Positions 11,926 to 36,603 are shown, counted from the stretch's first letter. The stretch: DNA of 40,316 bases from an uncultured virus (IMG/VR IMGVR_UViG_2061766007_000136) (IMGVR_UViG_2061766007_000136), one strand, 5' to 3'. Made by a program: numbers and translations. The notes: a model not told the origin generated them from the sequence alone.

Positions 11926-11937
11926 TGTTTCTTTTCC

Positions 11938-16768: not shown

Positions 16769-17137
16769 TTATTCAGTGTATCTGTAGACTACCCCTCCGA
16801 GGTAGTCCAGCCATTTGCCCAAGTTGAAGTTGTCCATGTACGTCATAGCGTCCATGCAACCGTCCTTGGCTTCCGAAAAGTACCAGTTGTCAATCCACCC
16901 GAAATCCAGCTTTTCAGCCAGCTCGCGTGTCTCGTCGTCCTTAATCGCGTTGAAGTCAATATGCGTCATGTCATGCTCCGCTGATTCGATTGGAATAGAA
17001 TTGGCAATCCAAGTCGCCTTCACGCATTCCTTGTAGTCCATAATCATCCTTTTCTTCCTTTCGGACAAGGAAGACCAGTTAATGATGACGAATGAACTCG
17101 AACTCGAATTGCTCACAAAGCTGTACCTTGTTTTCAT
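16769..17137 (-). CDS. phage protein with SNSSSSSF motif
   Basis: MKTRYSFVSNSSSSSFVII. Confidence 0.8.
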   Translation of the reverse strand: MKTRYSFVSNSSSSSFVIINWSSLSERKKRMIMDYKECVKATWIANSIPIESAEHDMTHIDFNAIKDDETRELAEKLDFGWIDNWYFSEAKDGCMDAMTYMDNFNLGKWLDYLGGVVYRYTE

Positions 17138-17194: not shown

Positions 17195-17673
17195 TCATTT
17201 TTTCTCAAGACGATATGCCGTGACGTGAAATTTCTCCCCGTACCGATTCACCTGACGCTTGATAATGTCGGTGATAACCTTCGGGTCTCCTCCAGCCAAC
17301 CCGCATCCTATTAAATAAGGTATGGCGATTTCGCAATGCTCTGGATACTTCTTGTCGAGTTGCCACAACGCCTGTCCAAAAGCCCTCTCGAATTCACGGT
17401 AGCCAGTCATCCGCATCTTATAGCCATAGTTTACTTGTCCATATATGTTATAGACATACTTCACACCCATCGGGTTCTCGCGCTTGATTTCCGCATGGCT
17501 CGTGCTCCCGAACTTCCACTTGTCGGGCATAGTGGCTTTATCGGCTTCGTAAGCCTCTGGGAACACTTNNNNNNNNNNNNNNNCGCGCCCCACACGCACA
17601 TGCAGTTGCATTGATGCATCACAACGTCGGCTTTCGCCTCGAATAAATCACCGTCAACTATGTCCATATTCAA
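17195..17673 (-). CDS. macrodomain protein (TARG1/DarG-like ADP-ribose hydrolase), interrupted by N-gap
   Basis: GDLF...HQCNC...WGA and IAIPYLIGCGLAGG motifs. Confidence 0.88.
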
Positions 17674-17679: not shown

Positions 17680-18347
17680 TTACGCACGTTTGAGCTTTTC
17701 ACAGCAGTCGAACGCATCTTCCAGCATCTCGTCCGACGGATAGTCCTTCACATACTTCTTCACTTCATTCACCACCTTTTCCTTTACAAGCGGGTTGCAC
17801 ATGCGACAATCATACACATACCATACGTCAGAAAGGCACTTCGCCCATTCGTCAAGCCCGTATTTCTCTTCGCCCCATCTCAGTATCCCTCGAATGCAAC
17901 CGAGCGTCATCACCCATTCTTCTGGAAGATGCTTCTTCTCCACGCCTTTGTAGTTCTCGTAAAGGTCGTCCTGCAATCCCTGAGAATACATNNNNNNNNN
18001 NTCGCCCATTCGTCAAGCCCGTACTTCTCTTCGCCCCATCTCAATATCCCGCGAATGCAACCAAGCGTCATCACCCATTCTTCTGGAAGACGCTTCTTCT
18101 TCTCAACGCCTTTGTAGTTCTCGTAAAGGTCGTCCTGCAATCCCTGAGAATACATGCCGACCTTGTATCTGCTCCATGAATACTCGCCTATGCTCACTCC
18201 ACGGCACTGGGCAATCATCATCGCTTCTTGCATCAACCGCCTGTCTTTCAATTCATTGTAATCAAACTCCCTATCAAACAACAGTTCAAACACATAAGGC
18301 AGATACTCGCGTTCGCTTCTTACAAAATCATCGTCACGCCATCCCAT
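17680..18347 (-). CDS. hypothetical protein, possibly YwgA/DarG-C-terminal-like; 3' part duplicated across N-gap
   Basis: RRLMQEAMMIAQ..G....YSW..Y..G.YS..L..DL pattern. Confidence 0.55.
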
Positions 18348-18756
18348 CTTTCTTCTCCTTTCTGTTCCAGTCATGCATCTTCCTTTCTGCATAATATTCA
18401 CATTGCCTCCTGAGCATGGAGTCAAAGCCCACCTCCCCTTTCTCAATCCAATGCCCAGAAAGATACCTGAACAAGTCTCCACTCGTCCTTGCATTCCTGT
18501 TTTCGCGGTACTTTTTGAAAAGCCCGATGACATCGTTGTATTCTTGAGTGCATACAACGATGTCCGTCTCGAACGTACAACACGACGTGTCAACGTCCCC
18601 ATCATCCTTGTCGACGAGGCCTCCCACATGCACAAGAACTCTGTCGGAAATGACATGAAGAATTCCGTACAAGTTCGGCTTCTTGTGTTTCGGGCATCCA
18701 TCGAGGCAGTACGCCAAGTCCATGCCACATTTGCATTGACCAAATTCATTGTCCAT
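18334..18756 (-). CDS. Cys-rich array member (divergent)
   Basis: C-terminal CEYYAERKMHDWN. Confidence 0.7.
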   Translation of the reverse strand: MDNEFGQCKCGMDLAYCLDGCPKHKKPNLYGILHVISDRVLVHVGGLVDKDDGDVDTSCCTFETDIVVCTQEYNDVIGLFKKYRENRNARTSGDLFRYLSGHWIEKGEVGFDSMLRRQCEYYAERKMHDWNRKEKKDGMA

Positions 18757-18771
18757 CCAGTTCCTCCTTTC

Positions 18772-19041
18772 TCATCTGCCTTTACCGTCGTTCCATTCGC
18801 GCAATTTGTACTCCGCCATCATCTCGCACCGCTTCGGAACATCGTCCTCCTCGAACTTGCATTTCGGTCGAATCGGAGGAATACCCTTGAATTCAGTGCA
18901 ATACAAATGCTTGTTGCAACAATAGTACGTGTCCTCCGTGGTGTTTATTCCGCCCATCCAAGCTATTTTATCGCCAGGCTTCATGACGCACAAGAACAAG
19001 CAGTTGTATCCTTGACAAACCTCAAGACTTATCTTCATCAT
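18772..19041 (-). CDS. Cys-rich array member
   Basis: VPKRCEMMAEYKLREWN. Confidence 0.8.
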   Translation of the reverse strand: MMKISLEVCQGYNCLFLCVMKPGDKIAWMGGINTTEDTYYCCNKHLYCTEFKGIPPIRPKCKFEEDDVPKRCEMMAEYKLREWNDGKGR

Positions 19042-19489
19042 TCTTATCCTTGCTCATTGCACTAACATATTGCTCAGCATAAAACGCACACTTCTTCGTC
19101 ACGTGAACGCGCTCGAACCAGTCTTTCTTATAACCTCCGCCACCATCAGCAAGACATGAATACTCATCGTACTCCTCGCAGAAAAAAGGTTGGTTTTCTG
19201 GCAACTTCATTTCCTCCTCTGTAGCATTAAAAGGATAAGGGACACCACCTTTACGAAATACAGGCGTAATACCCGCCAATCCTTCTCGTAATGGCTCATA
19301 ATGCCTTTTGCATCCATATTTGACATGCTTGACCTGAAATTCTGGGCATTTCTGGCAGATATTCATATCCCTTGTGAATTTCACATGGCGGTCATACGCG
19401 CCGTCAATATTTGTTTCAAGACGGTCAAAAGAGACACTAGCTGGCTCCGTGTCATTCCTTGTGACCTTCATCTTCTTCTTTTTCTTCAT
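19022..19489 (-). CDS. Cys-rich array member
   Basis: ICQKC...CAFYAEQ. Confidence 0.75.
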   Translation of the reverse strand: MKKKKKMKVTRNDTEPASVSFDRLETNIDGAYDRHVKFTRDMNICQKCPEFQVKHVKYGCKRHYEPLREGLAGITPVFRKGGVPYPFNATEEEMKLPENQPFFCEEYDEYSCLADGGGGYKKDWFERVHVTKKCAFYAEQYVSAMSKDKNDEDKS

Positions 19490-20096
19490 CTTTATTTTCC
19501 TTGTATATGTCACGCATCACATATTCAGCAATCATGGCGCAAGTACGAGGAATGTGGAAATACTCGAATCTTTTTCTGTCTTCACTGCAATGATTGTCCC
19601 TTGTGCAACAGAAGAACCATTTGTTTCCATAATACGGATGGTCACTGCTGTAATGCTTCGCCACTTCCTTGCTGTTCGACGGGGTTCCTTCCGCAAAGCA
19701 AGGACATGTCTTGCAAATATCTAGATTCTTATGCAACTTCTGCTTGTAGTCTGGCTGATAGCCATAATCCCAAGGATAGAAAAGCTGTCCATGCGAACTC
19801 TTATTTACTTTTTCATCATTTCTTTTTACTTCCTTGACGGATTCCCTAAACGGCTTTTCATATTCTTTAATATGCGTACACATATATTTAAAAGGATACG
19901 TCCTGTCTGGAACCACACGGCGTTCCCAGTCGGAGGCATCTCTCATTTCCTCCTTAATCCATAAATGCGACTGCAACCACTGCTTATGACCGCGAGACAC
20001 ATGACCATAATCGAAATTGAAAATCTCGCAACAAGCATTATTGCCATCGCATTTCATGTGTTTGCATTTTCTGCATATTTCAAGCTTTCTTTTCAT
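19452..20096 (-). CDS. Cys-rich array member with two domains
   Basis: Two IC..C modules. Confidence 0.78.
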   Translation of the reverse strand: MKRKLEICRKCKHMKCDGNNACCEIFNFDYGHVSRGHKQWLQSHLWIKEEMRDASDWERRVVPDRTYPFKYMCTHIKEYEKPFRESVKEVKRNDEKVNKSSHGQLFYPWDYGYQPDYKQKLHKNLDICKTCPCFAEGTPSNSKEVAKHYSSDHPYYGNKWFFCCTRDNHCSEDRKRFEYFHIPRTCAMIAEYVMRDIYKENKDEEKEEDEGHKE

Positions 20097-20367
20097 GCTT
20101 GTTCCATTCTTTGATACAATACTCTGGATACAACTCGCATTTGTCAACAATACCGAAGCTTTCAAATTCTTCCTTGGTGTAAAGGAACCACGGAGTGTAG
20201 GATGCCATTCTAATGTCGGGAAAACGCACAGCATCTGAAGGCTCCAACCAGTCTTCTTGCTTTTTACAAGCGTATTCAACCAAAGCCTCAGAAGTTTTAA
20301 AATTCCAATTGTGCTTAGACGTTGCAAACATCTTGCAACGCTTGCATATTTCAAGCTTTCTTTTCAT
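20080..20367 (-). CDS. Cys-rich array member
   Basis: MKRKLEICKRC...EYCIKEWN. Confidence 0.82.
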   Translation of the reverse strand: MKRKLEICKRCKMFATSKHNWNFKTSEALVEYACKKQEDWLEPSDAVRFPDIRMASYTPWFLYTKEEFESFGIVDKCELYPEYCIKEWNKHEKKA

Positions 20368-20647
20368 CTTTGTTCCATTCTTTGATACAATACTCTGGAT
20401 ACATCAAACAGTCATTACTAACTTTGAGACTTTCAAAAGTTTTTTCATCATATGGTATTGTTTTACGAGTTATCGTAAGTGTTATATTTCCGAATGGTTT
20501 AAATAAACCATTCCATTGGTTATTCAGTCCTTCTTCCCCAATCGTGTAAATCCATTTTTCATCATAGAAAAAAGAACATCCGACTTTACCATTTTCAAAA
20601 TGCTCAAAATTTTTACACGTTTTACAAATATCCAACTTCAACTTCAT
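20351..20647 (-). CDS. Cys-rich array member
   Basis: Family motif. Confidence 0.82.
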   Translation of the reverse strand: MKLKLDICKTCKNFEHFENGKVGCSFFYDEKWIYTIGEEGLNNQWNGLFKPFGNITLTITRKTIPYDEKTFESLKVSNDCLMYPEYCIKEWNKDEKKA

Positions 20648-20883
20648 TTATTCCATTCCTTCAACTGATATTCCATGAAATACTCGCAATTTTCTGGAAT
20701 CATGAAATTATCCCAATAATTGTAGTTTATCCATTCGAAATCGCATTCACACCATATAAACACAGCGTCATCATTTGATGAAGCAGTAGTGTAATTGCCG
20801 TTAAACTGATTGCACACGTAAGCCATTCTGTATTTCTTGCAGTTCCTGCATATCTTCAGTCGTCTCTTCGGTCTTTTTCCCAT
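20644..20883 (-). CDS. Cys-rich array member
   Basis: Family motif. Confidence 0.8.
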   Translation of the reverse strand: MGKRPKRRLKICRNCKKYRMAYVCNQFNGNYTTASSNDDAVFIWCECDFEWINYNYWDNFMIPENCEYFMEYQLKEWNK

Positions 20884-21109
20884 TGTTCCAATCATCCATG
20901 CAATGCTCCATGTAATACAAGCAACCTTCTGGAACATCCATTTCATTCCAATGGTCGCTTGTCTTCAACTGCTCGATGTCATTTTCTTTCTTGCTAGCTA
21001 CTCCGCAAATGTATGCAAGCTCGTTATGACCGAACTTCCTTATGAATGATGCACAAAAGCAACTTTCACAGTTCTTGCACATGTCCCATATCCGTTTCAT
21101 TTGTTCCAT
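20801..21109 (-). CDS. Cys-rich array member
   Basis: Family motif. Confidence 0.78.
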   Translation of the reverse strand: MEQMKRIWDMCKNCESCFCASFIRKFGHNELAYICGVASKKENDIEQLKTSDHWNEMDVPEGCLYYMEHCMDDWNNGKKTEETTEDMQELQEIQNGLRVQSV

Positions 21110-21372
21110 CTCCTCAATTGTTGTTCCATAAGATAAGGGCAATCATCTGGTACCATTTGATTCCCCCAATAATTCTTGGCACTAATAACGGTTCCTCCAT
21201 CACGATAGCAAGTCCTGAACGTAGGCTTCCACTCATGAAACGGAGGAATGAATTTCCTGTCTGAAGAATTAACTACATATCCTTCGGAGTCAACTTTGTA
21301 AATCTTGCTGTATTCATTGTATTCTTCGCAATTTTTGCATATTTCAATGCATCTTCTTATTTTATTCTTCAT
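21097..21372 (-). CDS. Cys-rich array member
   Basis: Family motif. Confidence 0.8.
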   Translation of the reverse strand: MKNKIRRCIEICKNCEEYNEYSKIYKVDSEGYVVNSSDRKFIPPFHEWKPTFRTCYRDGGTVISAKNYWGNQMVPDDCPYLMEQQLRRWNK

Positions 21373-21931
21373 TATTCCATTCATTCAAAAGATACTCCGC
21401 TTTCATGAGACAATTCTTTGAAATCGTCTGCTTCTCAAATTCTTCCTTCGTCGTAATATGGCATCCATCAACCGTATTGCAGGAATAGACTCTTTCACCA
21501 CCACTCCTGCTCTTGAAGAAATTATCGCAATGTTTACATACGTCAAATTTCATCGTGATTTTCCCTTCCCACGGAGGCGATTCGCGGAGGCGGTCAGCAA
21601 GAGGGCATTTCTTCGGGGCATCCTGCATCTCGAACATAACCTTCGTCATCTCAAAGCACTTCACGCCGTCTTCTTCACAAGTGTAGTACATTCCGACATC
21701 TTCTTCTTGATTCGCCTGTGTCCTTCGTGTGACAACACCGCTTCTTTCACCAAAATATTCACAATCCTTGCAGATGTCGATATTCCTGTATACTTTTTTG
21801 GATACGTCAGTTGCACTTTTGTAGGTGCCGAGATAAAGTACCTTTCCATCATTTCCTTTCTTACTCGTATTGAGTTTTCCTATGGATTCGCCATTCGTGG
21901 CTTCCAGATTATCATTCCGCACTACTTTCAT
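21362..21931 (-). CDS. Cys-rich array member with two domains
   Basis: MKVVRND start; two modules. Confidence 0.82.
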   Translation of the reverse strand: MKVVRNDNLEATNGESIGKLNTSKKGNDGKVLYLGTYKSATDVSKKVYRNIDICKDCEYFGERSGVVTRRTQANQEEDVGMYYTCEEDGVKCFEMTKVMFEMQDAPKKCPLADRLRESPPWEGKITMKFDVCKHCDNFFKSRSGGERVYSCNTVDGCHITTKEEFEKQTISKNCLMKAEYLLNEWNNEE

Positions 21932-21943
21932 TTTTGAATACCT

Positions 21944-22165
21944 TTACTCTTTTTCATTGTTCCATTCCTCCAAAAAATACTCTGCTTTCAACTCGCAATT
22001 TGAAGGAATGTGCAATGCCTCCCATTCATATCTTTCTATCGGAGTCGTAAAACGGTTTCCTTGTTCCGTACTATATAAATCGTTCCAGCAATAATACGTA
22101 TTGCTTTTCTTGAACCATTCGAATTTACAGCATTTTTCGCAAAAGCTAAATTTCCTTTTCATCAT
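21944..22165 (-). CDS. Cys-rich array member
   Basis: Family motif. Confidence 0.8.
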   Translation of the reverse strand: MMKRKFSFCEKCCKFEWFKKSNTYYCWNDLYSTEQGNRFTTPIERYEWEALHIPSNCELKAEYFLEEWNNEKE

Positions 22166-22406
22166 TGCAATTCATTAAAAAATACTCCGCATAGTAAATG
22201 CATTCTTTAGGCACGCTGAATTTTTCCCAGTCGGTCTTGTAATATGAAGGATGGTAAAGAGAATTCAAATCAGGGTAGTTTGTCAAGTTGAACTTTTCGC
22301 AATTACATACGCATTTTTCTTTTCTATTCAGAAAAAAAGTGGAAAATTTATCGCATGCCTTGCAAATCTTCATCTTCCTTGTTATCGGTTTTCTTATCTG
22401 ACTCAT
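22146..22406 (-). CDS. Cys-rich array member
   Basis: Family motif. Confidence 0.78.
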   Translation of the reverse strand: MSQIRKPITRKMKICKACDKFSTFFLNRKEKCVCNCEKFNLTNYPDLNSLYHPSYYKTDWEKFSVPKECIYYAEYFLMNCNDEKEI

Positions 22407-22611
22407 TGTTCCATTCCCCAAGCTCATGTTCCATATAGTAATTGCAATTATGCGGTACGGTTCTTTTCGACCATTCATCCTCTCCAAAAAGCGGAGTGAA
22501 CGTATATCCGTGTATGCACAGATATCCAGTACCGTACAACTCGCTGTCATATATCTTTAATCTGTCGCACATTTTGCAGATTTCAAGATTTCTCTTCGGT
22601 CTTTTCTTCAT
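22348..22611 (-). CDS. Cys-rich array member
   Basis: Family motif. Confidence 0.8.
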   Translation of the reverse strand: MKKRPKRNLEICKMCDRLKIYDSELYGTGYLCIHGYTFTPLFGEDEWSKRTVPHNCNYYMEHELGEWNNESDKKTDNKEDEDLQGMR

Positions 22612-22837
22612 TGTTCCATTCCTTTAGACAATATTCAGTTCGCATAATACACCGTTTTGAAAGGTCATACCGTTCCCATTCGTCAATCGTGATGCATTCA
22701 TACCGACCATAGTAATCTTCCTTTGTAACGCCGTCCCAACACATGTAATGGATGTCAGTCCTCAGACTGTTCCACGGAATGAGCTTTCTTTTCCTGAAGC
22801 AAGGGCATTTCCTGCAAATTTCAAGATTCCTTTTCAT
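22583..22837 (-). CDS. Cys-rich array member
   Basis: Family motif. Confidence 0.8.
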   Translation of the reverse strand: MKRNLEICRKCPCFRKRKLIPWNSLRTDIHYMCWDGVTKEDYYGRYECITIDEWERYDLSKRCIMRTEYCLKEWNNEEKTEEKS

Positions 22838-23039
22838 TCTGATTCCACTCAATAATCTGATGCTCCATGCGAAAAGGACATGATGGCGGAACATCCATCT
22901 TATGCCAGTTCCTGAAAACCATATGGTCGAAATATCTGTAGTTGCGATTGCAGAACCATTCGCCTTCGCTCGCCTGCGGATAGCAGAACCACTTGGTCTT
23001 GTACTTGCACTGGATGCATATATCCTTATTTCGCTTCAT
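22821..23039 (-). CDS. Cys-rich array member
   Basis: Family motif. Confidence 0.8.
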   Translation of the reverse strand: MKRNKDICIQCKYKTKWFCYPQASEGEWFCNRNYRYFDHMVFRNWHKMDVPPSCPFRMEHQIIEWNQNEKES

Positions 23040-23271
23040 CTCTATTCCATTCGCTTATATATTGCTCTGTCTTGTACGGACATTCGTCTGGCACTTTTCT
23101 GGTTTCAACTCTCATTTTGCTTGATATTATAAACAATCCACGCATCACGATATAATAACGGTTAATATCACAATATCCCGTATGTCTCATCCCTTTTGAA
23201 CCCATCTTTCCATACTTTTTGAAATGCTCGCACTTTTTGCAAATATTGATTCTTCTAAACATCTTCTTCAT
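23026..23271 (-). CDS. Cys-rich array member
   Basis: Family motif. Confidence 0.8.
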   Translation of the reverse strand: MKKMFRRINICKKCEHFKKYGKMGSKGMRHTGYCDINRYYIVMRGLFIISSKMRVETRKVPDECPYKTEQYISEWNRDEAK

Positions 23272-23482
23272 TCCATTTGCTAAGTTGATGCTCCATGCGA
23301 TAAGGGCAATGTATCGGTACGGAATATTCCTTGAACGACTTAGACAGCATTCCAACTCCGTCCATGAAACCGCATCCGTACAAATCATGAGGTGTTCTTA
23401 CACCCGTCGCGAAATCAATAGACCAGTATCCAGACTTGAACAGATGTTCGCAATCCTTGCAAATGTTGAATTCCCGTTTCAT
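23255..23482 (-). CDS. Cys-rich array member
   Basis: Family motif. Confidence 0.8.
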   Translation of the reverse strand: MKREFNICKDCEHLFKSGYWSIDFATGVRTPHDLYGCGFMDGVGMLSKSFKEYSVPIHCPYRMEHQLSKWNEEDV

Positions 23483-23910
23483 TTTTTATTTTGTGTCTGT
23501 TCTTTACAAATTTCGTTCCATTTATCCTTCAACACTTCTTCATGAATCTTGCGTAATTGCTCTTCCCGCATGCTTTGGAAGGACATGTCCTTTTCATCAT
23601 CATCATTCCATGTCACGAATTTAAGGTCTCCGATAAGTGGACACGTGACAGTATCGGCATATTCATGCTCATAAGTCACCTTGTTCATCCATCCTATTTT
23701 TATTCTGTCTGCTTCACACGCATAATATTCGCATTCCTTGTCATCCCATCTCCCCTTTGTCATCATCTTCCTCTGAAAATGCTCACAGTCCTTGCAGACA
23801 TCAATATCCCTGTATATCTTCCGTTTCTCGTCCCTCATTCGTTGCAATGAACCAACCGATTTCGCCGTCCATTTTTCATCAATTTGTTCATCATTGCGCA
23901 CAACTTTCAT
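23479..23910 (-). CDS. Cys-rich array member (MKVVRND subtype)
   Basis: DIDVCKDC...CPL. Confidence 0.8.
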   Translation of the reverse strand: MKVVRNDEQIDEKWTAKSVGSLQRMRDEKRKIYRDIDVCKDCEHFQRKMMTKGRWDDKECEYYACEADRIKIGWMNKVTYEHEYADTVTCPLIGDLKFVTWNDDDEKDMSFQSMREEQLRKIHEEVLKDKWNEICKEQTQNKK

Positions 23911-24104
23911 TTCACATCTCCTTTCTTATCCATAAAGCAATTTTCAGCAGGTACTTCCAATTCATTCCATTTTCCTTTCCTGTCCACTCTTGTCCAGTTT
24001 TCAGAGCCGTCGTCCTTCAGACAGCGAAGAACTGGAAGACCTATCTCGACCATCGCCACATCGAAATACATGCACTTCTTGCAAGTCTCCCAGTTCCTTT
24101 TCAT
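23907..24104 (-). CDS. Cys-rich array member
   Basis: Family motif. Confidence 0.75.
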   Translation of the reverse strand: MKRNWETCKKCMYFDVAMVEIGLPVLRCLKDDGSENWTRVDRKGKWNELEVPAENCFMDKKGDVK

Positions 24105-24385
24105 TCTTCGTCATTCCATTGTAAAAGACAATACTCTGCATAGTAATCGCAATTGACTGGGACATGCCTCTTAAAGAAAGACCTTTTTCTCACGGACAAT
24201 TCAGAATGCATAAATCCGTCTTTTCCCTTGTTGCATATTCCACAAAAGAAGCAGTCATCATACTCTAAAACCCTTGTCAAAGCAAAATGCAATTTCTCGC
24301 ACTTGCAACATATCTCTGGCTTGCGAACCAAAGACATGTCGAGTCTCTGACCACTACTTTTTTCAACTATTCTTTTCTTCATCAT
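24101..24385 (-). CDS. Cys-rich array member
   Basis: Family motif. Confidence 0.8.
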   Translation of the reverse strand: MMKKRIVEKSSGQRLDMSLVRKPEICCKCEKLHFALTRVLEYDDCFFCGICNKGKDGFMHSELSVRKRSFFKRHVPVNCDYYAEYCLLQWNDEE

Positions 24386-24626
24386 TCCATTCTTTCAGAT
24401 TGTATTCCATTTTCAGTGTACACCGCCTCGGAACAGGAAGTTCCTTGTAATCACATTCCTTCTTGGCATCCAAGTCAAAAGACCTGCACAGATATCGATA
24501 AAACCAAATGCTGTCATATCGTCTGAAATCCTTGCAAAGCTGGCATATCTTAATATCCCTTTTCTGTGTAATCGGGGATTCAAGACTACTGTTATGGCAT
24601 TCTTCCATCATTATTCTCCTTTTCAT
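24363..24626 (-). CDS. Cys-rich array member
   Basis: Family motif. Confidence 0.78.
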   Translation of the reverse strand: MKRRIMMEECHNSSLESPITQKRDIKICQLCKDFRRYDSIWFYRYLCRSFDLDAKKECDYKELPVPRRCTLKMEYNLKEWNDEEKNS

Positions 24627-24861
24627 TCCATTCCTTGATGCAATATTCAGCCCTATATTCGCAATTGTCTGGCACATCCTGTTGCTCCCAACTGCTTCTT
24701 GAAAAGCAATTCAATTTGACACGCTCCTGACCGTCCTCAAAAAAATATCCCTCCATAATACTTCCAGACTTCGCGCAATGATACATTCCATCGAATATTC
24801 TCACTTCGCTAAACCAATTGCATTTCTCACATATCTTCCAATTTCTCTTAATTGCTTCCAT
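24592..24861 (-). CDS. Cys-rich array member
   Basis: Family motif. Confidence 0.8.
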   Translation of the reverse strand: MEAIKRNWKICEKCNWFSEVRIFDGMYHCAKSGSIMEGYFFEDGQERVKLNCFSRSSWEQQDVPDNCEYRAEYCIKEWNEKENNDGRMP

Positions 24862-25042
24862 CGTGCTTATTCCATGACAAAATACAATATTCCGCATACA
24901 TCGGGCAGTTCTTCGGAACTTCCAGTTTCCGTGTCTTCTTCCACGGCTTTTTCCACATCAGTGTACACGGGTCTTTCTTCAAACACTTCATATCTGGCTG
25001 ATAATGGTCGCAATCTCTGCATATCTTATATATCCTCTTCAT
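24848..25042 (-). CDS. Cys-rich array member
   Basis: Family motif. Confidence 0.8.
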   Translation of the reverse strand: MKRIYKICRDCDHYQPDMKCLKKDPCTLMWKKPWKKTRKLEVPKNCPMYAEYCILSWNKHDGSN

Positions 25043-25241
25043 CGCCGTTCCAATCGGTCATCTTGTATTCAGCCAGAAGCTCGCAGTCATTGGGGACATC
25101 CATCATCTCGAACTTTTCCCGATTTGTTCTATGAATGCTTACTTTTCCAATATCACTGGCGCATATCATCGCACCAAACACAGGGAAAGAATAGAAATTC
25201 CTGCAATGCCTGCAAAGATTAACTCTTCTTCTTATCACCAT
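25026..25241 (-). CDS. Cys-rich array member
   Basis: Family motif. Confidence 0.8.
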   Translation of the reverse strand: MVIRRRVNLCRHCRNFYSFPVFGAMICASDIGKVSIHRTNREKFEMMDVPNDCELLAEYKMTDWNGDEEDI

Positions 25242-25464
25242 TGTCGTTCCAATTCGTAAGACACTGCTCCGTCTTGAACAAACATGTGCTTGGGACTTCA
25301 GTGCTCTCGAAATTCTTTACAATTCGGTTCTGGTCGCAATTCCCGTTGGCTTTCACGGAATTGACATCCGTTATGCAACCATAGAAATGCAACTTCTTGT
25401 CATCGTCCGTCACAGCGGAATAGAAATAAGAACATTGTTTACAAACATCATATTTCTTTTTCAT
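25219..25464 (-). CDS. Cys-rich array member
   Basis: Family motif. Confidence 0.8.
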   Translation of the reverse strand: MKKKYDVCKQCSYFYSAVTDDDKKLHFYGCITDVNSVKANGNCDQNRIVKNFESTEVPSTCLFKTEQCLTNWNDNGDKKKS

Positions 25465-25708
25465 CTTTCTTATCCTTGTTCCATGATGTCATAGCCTGCT
25501 CCACATAGAAAGGGCATGACTTCGGTGCTTCTATCATTTCAAATTGCTCCTTGCAATATCTCCTCTTTATCTTTGTACTTGTTTCAAGCTCGCACTGATA
25601 TAATTGCTTCCCCGTAAATACCACCATCTTGGAACTCCTATCACAGGAAAAATTATTGCACTTTCTGCAAAGATTCAATGTTCTTTTCTTATTTATTTGC
25701 TTATCCAT
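25448..25708 (-). CDS. Cys-rich array member
   Basis: Family motif. Confidence 0.8.
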   Translation of the reverse strand: MDKQINKKRTLNLCRKCNNFSCDRSSKMVVFTGKQLYQCELETSTKIKRRYCKEQFEMIEAPKSCPFYVEQAMTSWNKDKKDEKEI

Positions 25709-25709
25709 T

Positions 25710-25946
25710 TCAATCTCCTTTATTCCAATCAATTATCTGGTATTCCGCTCTCATGGTGCAGTCGCTTGGAACTTCTTCCAGCACATATAAAGAATCTTTT
25801 TTGAACACAGGATGCTGAAAGACATTCCCTTCCACATTAAGCCATTTCTTCACACGACTGCAAGCATACCTATCTTCCTTGCTTACAGAAACATAATGCA
25901 GGCAATCCTTGCAATTAAGGCATATTTCAAGGTTTCTTTTCATCAT
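25710..25946 (-). CDS. Cys-rich array member
   Basis: Family motif. Confidence 0.8.
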   Translation of the reverse strand: MMKRNLEICLNCKDCLHYVSVSKEDRYACSRVKKWLNVEGNVFQHPVFKKDSLYVLEEVPSDCTMRAEYQIIDWNKGD

Positions 25947-26139
25947 TCCACTCCTGCATGTCATGCTCAGTTCTAAAAGGACATTCCTCAGCAATCTGCT
26001 GTCTTTCAAAAGCCTCAGCCTCGTAACATGACCCGAAATCCGTCCACCACATATCAACGATTTTACATTGAAACACCGACTCCCCGACCTGCTCGAATTC
26101 AGGACAGTGCCTGCAAATCTCAATCCTTCTTCTTGTCAT
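25927..26139 (-). CDS. Cys-rich array member
   Basis: Family motif. Confidence 0.8.
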   Translation of the reverse strand: MTRRRIEICRHCPEFEQVGESVFQCKIVDMWWTDFGSCYEAEAFERQQIAEECPFRTEHDMQEWNDEKKP

Positions 26140-26146
26140 TTCCTAT

Positions 26147-26386
26147 TTAACTATTTAACGTAGCAATCATTTGCTCCACTTTGAAAGAACAATTAACAGG
26201 TATACTCCTTCTTGTAAATTTCTTGGCACCAGCAAGACAAACAGGAAATCCGTTTTCTGTTGATTCCAATCCACATGTATATATGTTTATTTCATTCTCT
26301 TCTGTAAATGAAAATATATCATGCTGAAAATGAGGGCAGTTTAAACATATCTTAATGTGTCGTCTTATTTCGTTCGTCTTTTCCAT
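26147..26386 (-). CDS. Cys-rich array member
   Basis: Family motif. Confidence 0.8.
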   Translation of the reverse strand: MEKTNEIRRHIKICLNCPHFQHDIFSFTEENEINIYTCGLESTENGFPVCLAGAKKFTRRSIPVNCSFKVEQMIATLNS

Positions 26387-26609
26387 CTTTGTTCCAATCC
26401 ATTATCAAATATTCCGCTTTGTATATGCAAGTGCTTGGAATGTCTTCCAATTCATAGTATGTCCATTCGCGCCAGATTTTCATATACCAACTATCTGCAT
26501 TGAGACAACAAAATTGCTCCGAATCCTCGTCTGCTATCATAGTCCTGAATTCAGAACAAGTCTTACAGATGCGTATCTTCCTTTTTATACCTCTGTTACA
26601 TTCCTTCAT
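26352..26609 (-). CDS. Cys-rich array member
   Basis: Family motif. Confidence 0.8.
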   Translation of the reverse strand: MKECNRGIKRKIRICKTCSEFRTMIADEDSEQFCCLNADSWYMKIWREWTYYELEDIPSTCIYKAEYLIMDWNKDGKDERNKTTH

Positions 26610-26727
26610 CCTCGTTCCACTCCGTCAACTTCTGCTCCGTCAGGAAGANNNNNNNNNNATGCACCAGAATGCCATCGGAAACATCGCGTCTCCCCTGACC
26701 GCGAACCTCCTGCATTTCGAGCAGATG

Positions 26728-26979
26728 TCAATGTCTCTCTTCGGTCTCTCCGTCATCGTTACACTCCGTCACAAGGTATTCCGCGTAAAGCAAACAGCCA
26801 TCAGGCAGGTCAACCGTCTCCCATGCGTCGCTACAGTACGACGGGCAGTAACGGATGGACTTGTTCTGCGCATCCGTAAAAGTCTCGCAACCGCAGGAGC
26901 AGTATTCCTTTCCGTCTTTCGCGACAAACTTGCCGAACATCCCCGCGCATTGCCCGCAAAGTTTCAGCTTGCGCTTCAT
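26728..26979 (-). CDS. Cys-rich array member
   Basis: Family motif. Confidence 0.78.
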   Translation of the reverse strand: MKRKLKLCGQCAGMFGKFVAKDGKEYCSCGCETFTDAQNKSIRYCPSYCSDAWETVDLPDGCLLYAEYLVTECNDDGETEERH

Positions 26980-27206
26980 CCGTTCAATTCCTCAATCAAG
27001 TACTCAGCGTAATACACGCAGTAATTCGGCACGTCTCTCTTCTCCCATTCGTCGATGTGGATGCACTCGTACAGCGCACGGTAGTTTTTCCTGTCCGCAT
27101 CATCATGGCAATGGTAGTGGTGGTCCGTCCTCTTCATTTCCCAAGGGATGACCTTCCACTTCCTGAAGCAATGGCAATTCCTGCAAACATCAAGCCTTCT
27201 CTTCAT
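26976..27206 (-). CDS. Cys-rich array member (close homologue of 22583-22837)
   Basis: Family motif. Confidence 0.78.
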   Translation of the reverse strand: MKRRLDVCRNCHCFRKWKVIPWEMKRTDHHYHCHDDADRKNYRALYECIHIDEWEKRDVPNYCVYYAEYLIEELNG

Positions 27207-27405
27207 CGTTCCATTCCGACAACTTGTGCTCCATGCGGAAAGGGCACAGGGGAGGTACATCCATCCTGTGCCAATTCCTGAACGCCTTGTGGTCGAATTC
27301 CCTGTAGTTGCGGTTGCAGAAGTACTCGGATTCCTTGATATGCGAGTAGCCTTGCCACTTAATCCGATGTGGGCACTGCCTGCAAATCGCCCTGTTTCTT
27401 TTCAT
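27190..27405 (-). CDS. Cys-rich array member (close homologue of 22821-23039)
   Basis: FCNRNYR.FDH shared. Confidence 0.78.
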   Translation of the reverse strand: MKRNRAICRQCPHRIKWQGYSHIKESEYFCNRNYREFDHKAFRNWHRMDVPPLCPFRMEHKLSEWNDEEKA

Positions 27406-28166
27406 CGCCATTCCATTCGTTGATGCAGTGCTCCGTGCGGTACGGGCAGTTGTTCGGAATGTCATGGTCGTGGAACTTCTCGCATTCCATCGGCATGTCG
27501 TCCATCAGGACGCATGCGTGGACGACGTTTTCCTTCTTTTCGTCATCGTCGGCGAAGACGAAGTNNNNNNNNNNNNNNNNNNNNNNNNNNNNNNNNNNNN
27601 NNNNNNNNNNNNNNNNNNNNNNNNNNNNNNNNNNNNNNNNNNNNNNNNNNNNNNNNNNNNNNNNNNNNNNNNNNNNNNNCGCCGTCGTCATTCCACGACA
27701 CGAATTTCAGGTCTGTCAAGAAAGGGCATGTGGCGGAATCCGCATATTCATGCTCGTAGATTGTCTTGTCCATCCACCCGACTTTTATCCTGTCCGCTTC
27801 ACAAGCATAGCACTCACGCTCCTTTCCATCGCTTTCCTGCGTCATTTCCCTCTTGAAATGCTCGCATGACTGGCATACTTCTATATCCCTGTATATCCTC
27901 TTCCTGTCATCCATCTTCTTCGGCAACGCTCCGATGGCTTTGACGTTGTTCAACTTGCCAGCCTTGTCATCGCCACTCACGACTTCCATCCCCTNNNNNN
28001 NNNNNNNNNNNNNNNNNNNNNNNNNNNNNNNNNNNNNNNNNNNNNNNNNNNNNNNNNNNNNNNNNNNNNNNNNNNNNNNNNNNNNNNNAACGCAGCACGG
28101 GAAGACCATTCTCGACCATCACCACGTCGAAAAACATGCATTTCTTGCAAGTCTCCCAATCCCTTT

Positions 28167-28424
28167 TCATTCACCTTCGTTCCATTCCTTCAGCTTGTAC
28201 TCCATTTGCATCTCGCACTTCCTTGGAACAAGAAGCTCCTTGTACTGCCATTCCTTCCTCGCCTCAAGGTCGTAGCCGTTGCACCGATATTTGTAGAACC
28301 AAATCCAGTCGTACCGCCTGAATTCATTGCACTGCTTGCATATATCAATGTCCCTCTTCTGGATAATTGGCGAATCGAGACTACTGTTCTGACCTTCGTC
28401 CATCGTCGTTCTCCTTTTCATCAC
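28167..28424 (-). CDS. Cys-rich array member (close homologue of 24363-24626)
   Basis: FRRYD.IWFY shared. Confidence 0.78.
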   Translation of the reverse strand: MMKRRTTMDEGQNSSLDSPIIQKRDIDICKQCNEFRRYDWIWFYKYRCNGYDLEARKEWQYKELLVPRKCEMQMEYKLKEWNEGE

Positions 28425-29845
28425 CGCTCCATTCCATGACGCAATACTCAGCCTTGAACTCGCAACAATCGGGTATGTCCTGGTTAGCCCAGTTGGTCTT
28501 CGAAAAGCTGTTCAGCTTGACGTAGTGTTGCCCGTCTTCAAAGTACCCTTCCATGATAGCCCCAGACAGCATGCAGTAGTACATCTCGCCTAATAAGCTG
28601 ACAACNNNNNNNNNNNNNNNNNNNNNNNNNNNNNNNNTCCAATCCATGATGCAATACTCGGCGTACATCGGGCAGTTTTTCGGGACTTCCAGCTTCCGCT
28701 TCTTCCACGGAACCTCCCGCGTCAGACGGCACGGGTCTAGCTTCGAATATTTCATGTCTGGCTAGAAATGCTCGCAATCCCTGCATATCTTATACTTTCT
28801 TCTCATTCCCGTTCCAGTTCTGGAGGCACTGTTCAGCCCTGAGATGGCAGTCCTTGGAGACTTCAGACCCTTCGAAAATCTTCCTGACATGCTCTTCGCT
28901 GAACCCAATCTCCTTCGCTGGACTCTCGTCGTTGATGCATCCGTAGTAAAGCAACTTCTTGCCTTCGTTCGTCCTGCAAGCATAGAACATGTTGCACGAC
29001 TTGCAGACCTCNNNNNNNNNNNNNNNNNNNNNNNNNNNNNNNNNNNNNNNNNNNTGGAACGGGCATCCCTTCGGAATGTCGCCTTCCTTGAATTTCTCCT
29101 GAGAGCACCATTTGTCAAAATGGTACCCCATCCTTGTCCGCTTGTCCTTGTGGCATACGTAAAGCCTCTTCCCCATGTACTTCACTTCGGCTCTATTCTT
29201 GATGCACTCNNNNNNNNNNNNNNNNNNNNNNNNNNNNNNNNNNNNNNNNNNTTCCTCGCCATCGTTCCACTCCGTCATGTCCTGCTCCATCTTGAAAGGG
29301 CAGTCGTCTGGGATTTTGACCTTTTCATAGTCCCTCTCCCCATATCTGACATAGTACACGCCGAAAAACGTCTCGTCGGTGTCGGCAATCATGCACATGC
29401 ANNNNNNNNNNNNNNNNNNNNNNNNNNNNNNNNNNNNNNNNNNNNNNTCCTTCTCCTCGCCATCCCTGTTCCATCGCTCTAAACGATGCTCCATCTTGAA
29501 CATGCAGTACTCTGGAACCTTGAGGTTCTCGTACCGATTGACGGTCGGCTCCGTCCCGTGGAACAGCAGGTCTCTCGCCGAGTATGTGCATGCGTACTCG
29601 CCCTTCTTGTTGCAGAAGCACTCGCACTTGAGGCAGANNNNNNNNNNNNNNNNNNNNNNNNNNNNNNNNNNNNCTTGTTCCAATCCATCATCAGGTATTC
29701 CACTTTGCATTTGCAAGTGCTCGGAACATCCACAAGCTCGTAGTACATCAATTCACGCCAGATTTTAATGTACCAGCTATCACCATTGAGACAGCAGAAC
29801 TCCTCCGAACCCTCATTTACCGTCCTTCTGAATTCAGAGCAAGTC

Positions 29846-30100
29846 TCACAGATGCGCATCTTCCTTCTTATGCCCCTGTTCCATTCCTTCATCCTCGTTC
29901 CACTCCGTCAACTTCTGCTCCGTCAGGAAGACGCATTCTTCTGGAACTTCCCTTTCAAAAAATTCCTCCCTGCTTGTAAGATGGATGAACGCCTCTCCCG
30001 TCTTCATGCAGTAAAAATGAGGAGGACTCCATTTCCCATAACCTTTGTAGGCTACGAACTGCTTGCAACAGTCGCAAATCTCAGGCTTTCTTTTCATCAT
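29846..30100 (-). CDS. Cys-rich array member
   Basis: Family motif. Confidence 0.78.
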   Translation of the reverse strand: MMKRKPEICDCCKQFVAYKGYGKWSPPHFYCMKTGEAFIHLTSREEFFEREVPEECVFLTEQKLTEWNEDEGMEQGHKKEDAHL

Positions 30101-30284
30101 TCTTGTTCCAGTTCGCAATGCAATGTTCAGCGTACATCGGGCAGTTCTTCGGGACGTTTTTCCGAAGGAACTCATGTATGGACCTTNNNNNNNNNNNNNN
30201 NNNNNNTCTTGCGCAGTAGAACTTGGCGAAATACGCAATAACGAAATCGTCGCATTGACCGCATACCTCACGTATTTTCTTCAT
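30081..30284 (-). CDS. Cys-rich array member (N-gap inside)
   Basis: Family motif. Confidence 0.7.
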   Translation of the reverse strand: MKKIREVCGQCDDFVIAYFAKFYCARXXXXXXXRSIHEFLRKNVPKNCPMYAEHCIANWNKNDEKKA

Positions 30285-30452
30285 CGTCCCCGTTCCATTC
30301 GTTCATGCAGTACTCCGTGTAGAAATCGCATTTGACCGTGATTTCCTCGTCCTCGAAATCCCTGTCGGACTGTAGGACATANNNNNNNNNNCGGGGGGCT
30401 GAATTTACCATAACCCTTGTAGGCTACGAACTGCTTGCAGTGGTCGCAAATC

Positions 30453-30722
30453 TCAGGCTTTCTTTTCATCCTTGTTCCATTCGTTCAAACAATATTCTGT
30501 ATAGAAATCACATTTAACCGTGATGTCCTCATTCTCGAAGTCCTTTTTGGATTGAAGAACATATATCCCGCTGGTTCCATCCATCGACGCTACAGTTATG
30601 CCTATCACCCCTTCTGGGTGGTCTGTAAAATCAGCCTTCATGCAAATGTTCATATTAGTACCCAATGCCTTCGCCTTAGAATAATGAGGGCATTTTTTGC
30701 AAATGTTAAGCTTCCTTTTCAT
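30453..30722 (-). CDS. Cys-rich array member
   Basis: Family motif. Confidence 0.8.
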   Translation of the reverse strand: MKRKLNICKKCPHYSKAKALGTNMNICMKADFTDHPEGVIGITVASMDGTSGIYVLQSKKDFENEDITVKCDFYTEYCLNEWNKDEKKA

Positions 30723-30939
30723 CCTTGTTCCATTCCTTCATCTTGTATTCAACAAGGCACTGGCATCCTTTTGGTATATCCAGTTTTTTGAACTTGTTCT
30801 TTGTATCCCCAACAATATATGGAGTAAATCTGAGCATGCATCGTTCCTTGTATTCCTGCAAACACACATACCTGTTCGCATATCCTTTTGACTTTTGAAG
30901 TTCAGAACAATTCATGCAAATTCCGAAATCCCTTTTCAT
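30706..30939 (-). CDS. Cys-rich array member
   Basis: Family motif. Confidence 0.8.
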   Translation of the reverse strand: MKRDFGICMNCSELQKSKGYANRYVCLQEYKERCMLRFTPYIVGDTKNKFKKLDIPKGCQCLVEYKMKEWNKDEKEA

Positions 30940-31685
30940 CAGAACAACTCTAGTTGGCTTCCTTTTCCTTCAATCCTATCCTTCGCAATCTGGAAATACT
31001 TTTCTTCAAGTTCGATTCCTATGAAACGCCTGTTCGTATTCTTGCAGGCGATTCCAGTCGTTCCAGACCCCATGCAATTGTCCAGCACAACACCGTCCTC
31101 TGGACAATACGCCTTCACCAGCCATTCCATCAGTTCCACAGGCTTCTGCGTTGGATGCACCTGGTCTTGCCTCCGCCATTTCTGCGGGAAATCAAGAATA
31201 GTCGATGGATGCCTCGTTCCGTCGTTCGAATGCTCCGTCCCGCTGATTCCGAACTTCAAATTGTTGTTCTTGTTCGGAGTCCAGTTGCGGTGATACGGAG
31301 TGCCTTTCTCCATCTGGGGTTCATAGTACGCAGCGGACTCTCCGAACACAAGGATGTTTTCATGCTTCTTCATCGGCATGTACTTCGCAGTAAACGGGCT
31401 TCCGCATTTCGACTTCTTCCAAATAAGCTCATATCGGAACTTCTTCTCATTTGACAAGGCGAGTTTGTAGGCGAACAATCCTGTTCCAAATAACAGGATA
31501 TTTCCCTTCTTCTTGATGATTCGGTCATATTGCTCCCACAACTTGTCGAAAGGAATGATGACATCCCACGGGCATGAAGTGGACCCGAAGGGTAAATCGC
31601 AGAGAATCAAATCCACGGATTTATCTGCAATTCCCTTCATGATTTCAAGACAGTCGCCTTGATACAGTTGTATCTTTTCATCCAT
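30939..31685 (-). CDS. site-specific DNA methyltransferase (N6-adenine/N4-cytosine, beta class)
   Basis: GDCLE, DLILCDLPFG (motif IV), HPTQKP, VLDNCMGSGTT (motif I). Confidence 0.93.
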   Translation of the reverse strand: MDEKIQLYQGDCLEIMKGIADKSVDLILCDLPFGSTSCPWDVIIPFDKLWEQYDRIIKKKGNILLFGTGLFAYKLALSNEKKFRYELIWKKSKCGSPFTAKYMPMKKHENILVFGESAAYYEPQMEKGTPYHRNWTPNKNNNLKFGISGTEHSNDGTRHPSTILDFPQKWRRQDQVHPTQKPVELMEWLVKAYCPEDGVVLDNCMGSGTTGIACKNTNRRFIGIELEEKYFQIAKDRIEGKGSQLELF

Positions 31686-31707
31686 AATGATTATTGTCCT
31701 TTCTAAT

Positions 31708-31735
31708 AATATGACACACAATCATCAGAAGTCAA
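31708..31735 (-). promoter_or_regulatory. sigma70-like promoter driving the MTase and Cys-rich array
   Basis: TTGACT-N16-CATATT. Confidence 0.68.
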
Positions 31736-31740
31736 GTAAA

Positions 31741-32007
31741 TCAGTCGTCGAGATTATACAACTCAACCATTCTTTCTGTATACATCGGGCATCCATTCCA
31801 GATGTTTTTCATATCAAGCACCATGACTTTCACCATGTCTTCGCATGTCGAATCATCTGGCATGAAATCCATATGATTGTCACTCCAAAAACAAAGCACA
31901 TAATTCCCTCTTGAGTCTCGTGGGTCGAATCTATATCGATGAAAATGTAACCACTCGCAATGCATACATTCATCACACCACTTTTCAGCATATTCTTTTT
32001 TTGTCAT
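31741..32007 (-). CDS. Cys-rich family member (divergent)
   Basis: CDEC..C...GCPMYTERMVELYN. Confidence 0.7.
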   Translation of the reverse strand: MTKKEYAEKWCDECMHCEWLHFHRYRFDPRDSRGNYVLCFWSDNHMDFMPDDSTCEDMVKVMVLDMKNIWNGCPMYTERMVELYNLDD

Positions 32008-32014
32008 AATCATT

Positions 32015-32049
32015 AAAAAGGCGCAAGTTGAGTTCTTCAACTTGCGCCT
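32015..32049 (-). terminator. intrinsic terminator
   Basis: AGGCGCAAGTTGA-AGAAC-TCAACTTGCGCCT-TTTT. Confidence 0.85.
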
Positions 32050-32064
32050 CTCCTCATGTCAATC

Positions 32065-32274
32065 TTATTTCACGACTCTACGTGCGAATTTGTCCAAAAG
32101 CTCATCTGGCGTGATATGGATTTTCTTGTTCAGGATATTGTCGCTTCTGCCACAATAATTATCCTTACCATGATATTCAAGCCAGTATGACTTCCCTTTT
32201 TCGAATATGGAGAAGGATTCCATACAAGTAAGGAATCCATTCCCCACACGTTCCTTTTTCTCTTTCTCAGTCAT
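32065..32274 (-). CDS. hypothetical protein
   Basis: 69-aa ORF coupled to the SPFH gene. Confidence 0.7.
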   Translation of the reverse strand: MTEKEKKERVGNGFLTCMESFSIFEKGKSYWLEYHGKDNYCGRSDNILNKKIHITPDELLDKFARRVVK

Positions 32275-32276
32275 TA

Positions 32277-33536: not shown

Positions 33537-33591
33537 AACGGAACTCCTTTGGTTTACTTTACTTTTACTTTTCTAATTAACTACAACTACT

Positions 33592-34713: not shown

Positions 34714-34719
34714 GCTCCT

Positions 34720-36326: not shown

Positions 36327-36593
36327 TCAATCCTTTTCCCCTTTTTCATACTTTTCAACCGCCTCTTCGATTTCCTTGCGAGCCTCGTCCTTTTCATAAC
36401 GACGCTCGGAAGAAGTAAAGAACTGCAAACGCTTCAGACGGTCTTTCGGTTCATGCTTCATTTCAGACGGATAAATGTATGCATTCACCTGCTTCTTCAG
36501 CTTGTTCCTGCTTGTCATGCGATTCCTTTTTGTTATGGTTTCCGTGTTACAGCCATAATATACATCCGTCTTCGACGATTGCAAGTCGTCCAT
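36327..36593 (-). CDS. hypothetical basic protein
   Basis: ORF filling the space between the ligase and the array; start uncertain. Confidence 0.55.
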   Translation of the reverse strand: MDDLQSSKTDVYYGCNTETITKRNRMTSRNKLKKQVNAYIYPSEMKHEPKDRLKRLQFFTSSERRYEKDEARKEIEEAVEKYEKGEKD

Positions 36594-36603
36594 TGCGATT
36601 TTT

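Follow-up and report, generated by a model that had tools for sequence, protein, structure and literature searches.

A tandem array of small four-cysteine proteins in a large uncultured gut phage represents a previously undescribed family

The closest described counterpart of the locus presented here is found in Bacillus phage G, which encodes about 35 copies of a Zn-ribbon, with a possible role as transcription factors or in DNA binding (Iyer et al. 2021, PMC7824862); in the passage of that paper concerned with this expansion, its function is only guessed at. Searching the phage G genome with gp32 (YP_009015343.1) yielded 34 matches, of which 28 form a single tandem run (352.9–371.0 kb). Here we describe a 40,316-nt stretch of DNA from an uncultured virus (IMG/VR IMGVR_UViG_2061766007_000136; the whole stretch is referred to as the window), which, like phage G, represents a very large phage with approximately 30 paralogues of a small four-cysteine (Cys4) module, arranged mostly head to tail on one strand. 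The source is a large, tRNA-rich uncultured phage from cattle-gut and other gut metagenomes, with the array located in an accessory region, and the family is a previously undescribed, lineage-specific tandem expansion of small cytoplasmic proteins. New here are the family, possibly its fold, and an unusually regular dual-coding junction between neighbouring genes; the tandem expansion of a small Cys4 module itself has the phage G precedent.

The array genes encode products of ~60–100 aa of the form M-K-R-x3-I-C-x2-C, a core Cys and V-P-x2-C-x4-E-Y-x-L-x-E-W-N. The family strand is the minus strand, on which all genes of the window lie: matches to the strict C-terminal motif [VIL]P..C....E....x[WLC][NS] number 31 in the minus-strand frames of the window and zero in the plus-strand frames, and for a looser version of the motif the counts are 54 and 9, respectively. 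Plus-strand open reading frames (ORFs) over the array (e.g., 18373–19065) are antisense shadows without family features. Complete, N-free members number 38, comprising 31 proteins of 63–98 aa (20080–30939) and 7 of 118–151 aa (36604–39734); four more ORFs, broken by runs of N, were excluded from the set. In an alignment of 30 members (consensus MKRxxxICxxCxxF...YxC...VPxxCxxxxEYxLxEWN), C8, C11, C77, E82 and N89 do not vary and conservation of C34 is 90% or higher, so that the four conserved candidate ligands of a generic zinc-binding domain are present, and across 131–133 members from many phages one to two of the four Cys are invariant and the rest at least 90% conserved. A hidden Markov model (HMM) built from the 30-member alignment matches 46 ORFs of the window (E ≤ 1e-3), 44 of which fall within 18775–30969. 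All members are hydrophilic, with isoelectric points (pI) of 4.4–9.6 and net charges from −10 to +9 (median 0), and the region between the second and fourth Cys spans 30–70 residues that differ in length, charge and secondary structure. The small Cys4 proteins are one protein-coding family on a common scaffold, as the initial annotation had proposed, the alignment and two AlphaFold2 models being in agreement on the four conserved Cys and the fixed scaffold.

The two modelled members (Table 1) are 26% identical to each other. Each model has a strand at residue 2 and the CxxC turn at residues 5–9, as well as a beta-hairpin that ends with the third Cys; the fourth Cys is preceded by a short strand and followed by a C-terminal helix. 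The middle region differs, with two helices in one model and an extra hairpin in the other. Structure prediction, suggested earlier as a check on the shared scaffold, yielded two confident models with the same N-terminal turn, hairpin and C-terminal helix. For the first model, the best Foldseek match in the PDB had an E-value of 6.4, the best VIA match a Z score of 2.5 (root-mean-square deviation (rmsd) 4.0, 54 aligned residues) and the best match in BFVD, an uncharacterised 60-aa protein, an E-value of 0.31 (template-modelling (TM) scores 0.48/0.55); for the second, the best Foldseek E-value was 0.67 and the best VIA Z score 2.6 (rmsd 3.2, 45 aligned). No solved or predicted viral structure was thus matched with Foldseek, VIA or BFVD, although small metal-dependent domains are hard to match and a new fold is unproven by these searches; on the strength of the models, the Cys4 family is possibly a new fold.

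The size of the array required separating two strains. Counted by domain, the span 18334–30939 holds 34 plus 15 HMM matches and 4 edge fragments, or about 53 units, in line with the initial estimate of about 50 paralogues; however, one segment of the span (block B, Table 1) comes from a second strain, and a single genome carries ~35. The figure of 50–60 members in the window was inflated in the same way, since it included this assembly artefact at 26659–30381. Block B is a second, rarer strain's version of the locus, set in tandem by the scaffold. The alternative, a genuine segmental duplication within one phage genome that would give an array of ~50 members, might explain why both segments lie in the same submitted scaffold and why 22772–26648 is colinear with 27141–29931 at 73–84% identity, as expected of an old tandem duplication, but it is very improbable in view of the following evidence. 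Both edges of block B coincide with 10-nt N-runs (N10 gaps) and cut genes (the window contains 21 N-runs). Block B (26703–30381) is 94–98% identical to positions 4826–8644 of a related, N-free metagenome contig, L084, whereas the rest of the window is 79–89% identical to L084, save one 351-nt stretch at 95%; and L084 has a single copy of the locus. Among the contigs compared in four sequencing runs (X1–X4), a contig with a depth of 14.9 from X1, possibly the run from which the window derives, follows the window over 25600–26598, continues with 138 nt equal to 29882–30019 and then with 30392–31086, bypassing block B, and both joints (26598 to 29882 and 30019 to 30392) recur in X3 and X4, which come from other studies. 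Block B itself forms a separate contig in X1 with a depth of 5.65 (6.36 in X2), the ends of which continue unlike the window. The single-copy L084, the bridging contigs and the separate contig of lower depth together place block B outside the genome of the dominant strain. In X3 and X4, cover was zero over 26704–28175 and 28360–29831, with 0.42 for X4 in the bin 28176–28359, but the artefact call rests on the bridging joints and not on this missing cover. Outside block B, the Logan contigs of X1 and X2 cover 25600–26598 without differences from the window, and Logan contigs are unbroken across 30392–31086. In the dominant genome, the array hence comprises about 33 genes with 35 units and occupies about 8.95 kb of one strand, and its apparent size was inflated by about one third through the artefact. 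The case illustrates how the versions of a variable locus from two strains can end up side by side within a scaffold, inflating a family by a third.

Arrays of this size are real, given that L084 has 33 ORF matches in 127–9095 without a gap; a further gap-free contig, L104, has 14 before the contig ends. In all, three array-bearing contigs were found by a junction-pattern scan of metagenome contigs.

Further irregularities of the assembly were observed in and around the array. At the N-runs 27565–27679, 27995–28088 and 28606–28637, the X1 and X2 contigs carry 167, 111 and 63 letters compared with 115, 94 and 32 N, respectively, so that the length of an N-run does not equal that of the real sequence. 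Positions 33743–34303 repeat 33177–33732 at 89–94% identity, with N-runs between the pieces, and 34374–34449 repeat 34656–34731 at 91% across an N10 gap; both copies of these repeats (33177–34731) map to one L084 stretch, and they are probably a second-strain insert like block B. The 151–154 nt flanking the N10 gap at 17992–18001 (17841–18155) are 94.8% identical and contain a duplicated partial gene (…MYSQGLQDDLYENYKGVEKK…), probably representing overlapping contig ends of two strains.

Neighbouring array genes overlap in a regular manner. Along one strand, stop and start overlap at 21 of 24 resolved junctions in 18300–26650 and at 27 of 28 in L084, the arrangement expected of a coupled operon. 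Overlaps of 17 nt are the most frequent in 18300–26650 (six junctions), followed by 20 nt (three) and by 4, 14, 23 and 29 nt (two each), and 17 nt is also the modal length in L084 (8 of 28 resolved junctions) and L104 (3 of 9). A typical junction reads GAA TGG AAC AAA G / ATG AAA AGA AAG CTT GAA ATA TGC, in which E-W-N-K-D-E-K-K-A-stop and M-K-R-K-L-E-I-C are encoded by the same bases in two frames. Some members end 1–3 residues past W-N, which indicates that the longer tail is dispensable and looks like a by-product of the overlap. The conserved EWN codons (GAATGGAA) had been proposed to serve as the ribosome-binding region of the next gene, a role that is weakly supported at best: the median Shine-Dalgarno pairing energy of array genes, computed against a generic anti-Shine-Dalgarno sequence, is −3.3 kcal/mol compared with −3.1 kcal/mol in the background (Mann-Whitney P = 0.002). 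In contrast, spaced genes of the window are preceded by AGGAGG or AAGGAG (−7.5 to −10.9 kcal/mol), and weak sites within the array next to strong ones at spaced genes would fit translational coupling. With the 17-nt dual-coding junction repeated dozens of times, the locus displays an unusually regular overlap and could offer a model for coupling and for junction recombination.

Divergence from L084 was used to assess how the array evolves. Five block B genes differ from their L084 counterparts by 18 non-synonymous and 23 synonymous changes (non-synonymous divergence (dN) 0.019, synonymous divergence (dS) 0.123), and the resulting dN/dS ratio (omega) of 0.15 on recent divergence indicates constrained coding genes under purifying selection. 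A non-coding repeat was ruled out by frame conservation, by this omega and by an Rfam scan of 10700–40316 that returned no family. For the neighbouring genes, comparison with L084 gave dN 0.085 and dS 1.0 for the RNA ligase (85% protein identity) and dN 0.139 for the SPFH protein, and the array evolves two to four times faster than these neighbours. Once block B is excluded, no full-length pair of array paralogues exceeds ~36% identity, and 22 of 26 members of the dominant strain find their best BLASTP match in the L084-type array, 14 of them at 46–83% identity, indicating that the paralogues are old and individually maintained. The interval between two anchor genes common to both is occupied by 5 genes in the window and by 15 in L084, and certain orthologues are found to the left of an anchor gene in one and to the right of it in the other; array content differs between related phages. 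Moreover, the adjacent junctions 20072–20132 and 20343–20403 are 96.7% identical over 61 nt, and the proteins are 35% identical, which points to a local conversion or recombination event. Both the varying array content and this pair of junctions fit the recombination at junctions suggested by the initial annotation. A diversity-generating retroelement found no support, as no reverse transcriptase was detected among the 24 larger ORFs scanned (smaller ORFs were not all scanned); self-comparison revealed no pair of template and variable repeats, and the length of the core varies among members. With the artefact taken out, the array shows no recent amplification.

The failure to assign the proteins to a known family was upheld by all searches, as Pfam, PHROGs and NCBIfam gave no match above threshold. 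In Pfam-A, none of the 38 window members reached the curated cut-off (best E-value 0.01, to HPIP_like, at chance level), and among 131 family members no Pfam-A family was matched by more than one. Two of the 38 had weak matches only in PHROGs v4 (E-values 0.002–0.003), as did one of 30 in NCBIfam 20 (0.0024). The nearest clusters in the ESM Atlas are unnamed viral proteins, and the nearest named ones, DUF6472 (0.81) and Tad8 (0.78), are below a meaningful level. A word-indexed homologue search with the family profile A2 gave 7 matches, none of them named. A HMMER search over 1.84 billion representative proteins, by comparison, recovered 312 proteins at E ≤ 1e-3, 55 of them at E ≤ 1e-10; in some, two or three units are fused. 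When 123 single-unit representatives were aligned, 34 shared 90% identity or more with an ORF of the window, of L084 or of L104, and 73 fell below 50%, indicating that the family extends to other, unsampled relatives, none of which bears a name. With ~312 representatives among 1.84 billion clustered proteins, it constitutes a compact natural scaffold with naturally varied surfaces.

Searches for the locus itself returned little. The junction DNA pattern had no match in IMG/VR, and 79 IMG/VR loci retrieved through the neighbouring methyltransferase contained no family member at E ≤ 1e-3. Among GenBank phages, blastn with 20000–27500 and tblastn with one member (E ≤ 1) gave no match. In species-representative bacterial and archaeal genomes, the junction pattern was found at 30 loci, none encoding a member at E ≤ 1e-2, so these are chance matches that provide no clue to the host. 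Full-text literature searches retrieved no description of the family.

The explanation that we favour, with confidence a little better than even, is a lineage-specific expansion of metal-stapled mini-domains that constitutes a repertoire of binders directed against the host or competitors. The four conserved Cys of each unit, located in the CxxC turn, at the hairpin end and before the C-terminal helix, would bind one metal ion, most likely Zn, which would staple the constant N- and C-terminal elements together, and the variable middle would give each paralogue a different surface. Transcription of the array would yield a single long message, on which ribosomes would move on to the next gene at each overlap. 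The array would evolve through slow birth-and-death together with recombination at the conserved junctions, whose homology may mediate gain, loss and reshuffling of genes, rather than by targeted hypermutation or recent amplification. That the small binders would act on different host or competitor proteins, in host takeover or counter-defence, is a more tentative step, to which we give somewhat less than even weight and which draws on surface diversity and neighbour classes only. Bolder still, and in our estimation doubtful, is the proposal that the array is a library of metal-stapled mini-binders, each neutralising a different host defence or housekeeping protein, with the junctions as recombination points at which co-infecting relatives could exchange, gain or lose individual cassettes; this would be a heritable and modular form of counter-immunity evolving by birth-and-death, built on a fold absent from solved structures.

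Several points weigh against the binder repertoire. No sign of positive selection was detected, omega being 0.15 on recent divergence. Moreover, in 14 syntenic pairs between the dominant strain and L084, the proportion of non-synonymous differences (pN) was 0.18 in the N-terminal end, 0.26 in the core and 0.19 in the C-terminal end, so divergence is only moderately higher in the core than at the ends, and to call the core hypervariable was an overstatement. Synonymous sites are saturated in these distant pairs (proportion of synonymous differences (pS) 0.72–0.82), leaving no usable omega with which selection on the core could be judged in distant orthologues. As to expression, translational coupling is predicted from the overlaps only, and because the choice of start codons was heuristic, the longest overlaps (53–95 nt) may be wrong. 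Scans for sigma-70 promoters (27 found, 26.6 expected) and terminators (14 found, 9.5 expected), neither above shuffles, were uninformative on operon structure. Guilt by association is a weak functional argument, and no homology bears on function. Finally, the published comment on the comparable phage G expansion suggests transcription factors or DNA-binding proteins.

Indeed, members may instead be nucleic-acid-binding regulators, such as transcription factors or DNA- or RNA-coating proteins, with the Cys4 module as a small zinc finger, and transcription-factor or structural DNA-binding roles are those proposed for the phage G Zn-ribbon expansion in PMC7824862. The basic N-termini (MKRK...) and the pI above 9 of some members are compatible with such roles, but the overlapping frame itself accounts for part of the N-terminal basicity, the median net charge is 0 and many members are acidic, with pI values down to 4.4. 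Furthermore, the Pfam scans of 38 and 131 members returned no DNA-binding family, and homology to phage G was not detectable (no profile match in the genome; hhalign probability 0.3%), making this alternative unlikely. Improbable, too, are small redox or electron-transfer modules in which the four Cys hold iron or an iron–sulfur (Fe-S) cluster. The four conserved Cys and the anaerobic gut habitat suggested by the run labels would suit such modules, as would the single HPIP_like match among 38 members, at chance level and below cut-off, but neither Pfam nor NCBIfam gave a significant match to an Fe-S family, no redox partner genes were present among the larger ORFs scanned, and a redox carrier would not readily account for ~35 divergent paralogues whose cores and charges vary. 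Precursors of ribosomally synthesised and post-translationally modified peptides, with constant ends as recognition sequences and the variable part as core, are barely credible: many small Cys-containing ORFs in tandem, each part constant and part variable, are reminiscent of multi-precursor loci, but here both ends are conserved and, in the confident models, fold together with the core as one domain; the larger ORFs scanned included no radical-SAM, cyclase, protease or transporter family, and the setting is a phage accessory region.

The surroundings of the array, on which the binder repertoire draws for its neighbour classes, are summarised in Table 1. The methyltransferase lies directly upstream of the array, its stop overlapping the start of the first array gene (TGATG), and a promoter-like site is present at 31735–31706 (the scan was not enriched over shuffles). 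The order RNA ligase, SPFH protein, methyltransferase and array is also found in L104, and the RNA ligase is only 35–39% identical to those of known large phages. In L084, the region 9095–10605, compared with 30939–32668 of the window, contains no BLASTN counterpart of the methyltransferase, whereas a counterpart with 80% identity is present in L104, so that relatives differ in the gene immediately upstream of the array. An HNH endonuclease is also encoded in the window, together with 36 tRNA genes on the minus strand (192–10715, detected with ARAGORN) that cover most amino acids and account for the short self-similar stretches seen by self-BLAST in 3–11 kb; such a tRNA island is typical of very large phages. 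Methyltransferases, RNA ligases, tRNAs and proteins of the NMN (nicotinamide mononucleotide)-adenylyltransferase-like and macro/phosphatase-like classes include known counter-defence functions, and the accessory genes with the methyltransferase and tRNAs look like a counter-defence and host-independence region. The runs holding the locus are labelled bovine gut or gut metagenome; relatives are present in runs X3–X10, and part of the locus occurs in metatranscriptome data (X20).

The second block of longer genes had been assigned to the same family, and profile–profile comparison with the first block (hhalign, A1 versus A3) supports the relationship with a probability of 96% (E-value 3e-9), but only over the C-terminal 22 columns, so that it represents a distant subfamily. 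Its ends take the form M-N/K-x-E-I/V-C-E-x-C ... C-P-Y-x-x-E-H-x4-W-N, and the HMM of the first block matches four of its genes (domain E ≤ 1e-2). A 160-aa ORF (36327–36809, minus strand) overlaps the member at 36604–36960 by ~200 nt in another frame; compared with L084, it has pN 0.089 and pS 0.093 (34 non-synonymous and 9 synonymous differences), and its upstream part may be non-coding.

Small sets of related genes were also noticed outside the array, all on the minus strand. Three adjacent genes of 183–196 aa (11362–13076) appear by eye to be paralogues, with the common stretches ...DVVDEV...W L.DHGF... and ...TAEEAV..AVA.AIE..., and have no Pfam or PHROGs match. The genes at 14217–14855 and 14868–15665, a small paralogue set, share ...TPE.DM..F.H...G..L.Y.EI.NS.P..DDGY..., and those at 13414–14262 and 16769–17137 have a common N-terminal SNSSSSSF motif; neither pair matched a family.

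Table 1. Features of the window and their coordinates
Feature	Position	Strand	Details
Phosphohydrolase and cytidylyltransferase-like (NMN-adenylyltransferase-like) fusion	15672–16751	-	
Macro/phosphatase-like protein	17195–17611	-	phrog_335
Main array, dominant strain (haplotype A)	18334–26648	-	30 ORFs, 32 family-domain HMM matches
First gene	18334–18756	-	matches family by C-terminal motif only
Two-unit fused genes	19452–20354 and 21362–21931	-	within main array
Example of 17-nt overlap	20351–20367	-	tail of gene 20351–20647 = start of gene 20080–20367
First modelled member, 72 aa	22821–23039	-	AlphaFold2, 131 sequences: predicted local distance difference test (pLDDT) 82.7, predicted TM score (pTM) 0.65
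Gene X, C-terminal end	26599–26648	-	same gene as N-terminal piece 30392–30469
N10 scaffold gap, low edge of block B	26649–26658	.	cuts gene X of dominant strain
Block B	26659–30381	-	15 domain matches and 2 edge fragments, 9 internal N-runs
N10 scaffold gap, high edge of block B	30382–30391	.	joint 30019 to 30392 in contigs
Array head, dominant strain	30392–30939	-	gene X N-terminal piece 30392–30469, genes 30453–30722 and 30706–30939
Second modelled member, 89 aa	30453–30722	-	AlphaFold2, 133 sequences: pLDDT 82.2, pTM 0.67
N6/N4 DNA methyltransferase	30939–31721	-	Pfam PF01555, E 7e-31; phrog_67, E 5e-81
Possible outlying member (CDECMHC ... CPMYTERMVELYN)	31741–32040	-	weak HMM match, E 0.16
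SPFH/Band 7 protein	32277–33536	-	
Rnl-type RNA ligase with PHA02142 OB domain	35259–36323	-	
Second block, at least 8 longer genes (118–151 aa)	36604–40316	-	distant subfamily, same ends, much larger cores

Zinc ribbons and treble-clef fingers also have a CxxC turn at a small beta-hairpin, with later ligands that include the start of a helix, and are likewise small, with folding that is probably metal-dependent; however, their second pair is CxxC or CxxH, whereas the family described here has two Cys 20–45 residues apart, no zinc-finger family passes threshold for it and no solved structure matches the models. Host-takeover clusters, such as the SPO1 gp37–60 module and the T4 early genes, likewise form accessory regions in which dozens of small genes lie on a single strand, near genes for nucleic-acid modification or repair, and their products are believed to act by binding host proteins and redirecting them; such clusters, however, encode a mixture of unrelated proteins, whereas a single family accounts for nearly all genes here. 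Multigene families of large eukaryotic DNA viruses (African swine fever virus MGF110, poxviruses) are tandem paralogues of strain-variable number that evolve by birth-and-death and are linked to host interaction, but they belong to another domain of life and have no sequence relation to the array, in which the paralogues are old and without recent amplification.

The phage G expansion differs in its sequence and layout. The family profile A2 had no match at E ≤ 1 in the phage G record, a result that shows nothing alone, as no genome with a known match served as control and the 34 gp32 matches are a positive control for the phage G record only, not for profile A2. The hhalign comparison of A2 with gp32 points the same way, and the two families thus appear not detectably related. 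Phage G gp32 has two Cys pairs, CPIC ... CPHGC (CPxC ... CPxxC), compared with one CxxC and two lone Cys here, and the frames around most of its tandem copies are 183–230 aa long and lie ~600 nt apart, whereas the proteins described here are 60–100 aa long and their reading frames overlap. The array is thus a second, unrelated case beside the single published example, which suggests that tandem expansion of a small Cys4 module is a recurring strategy of large phages.

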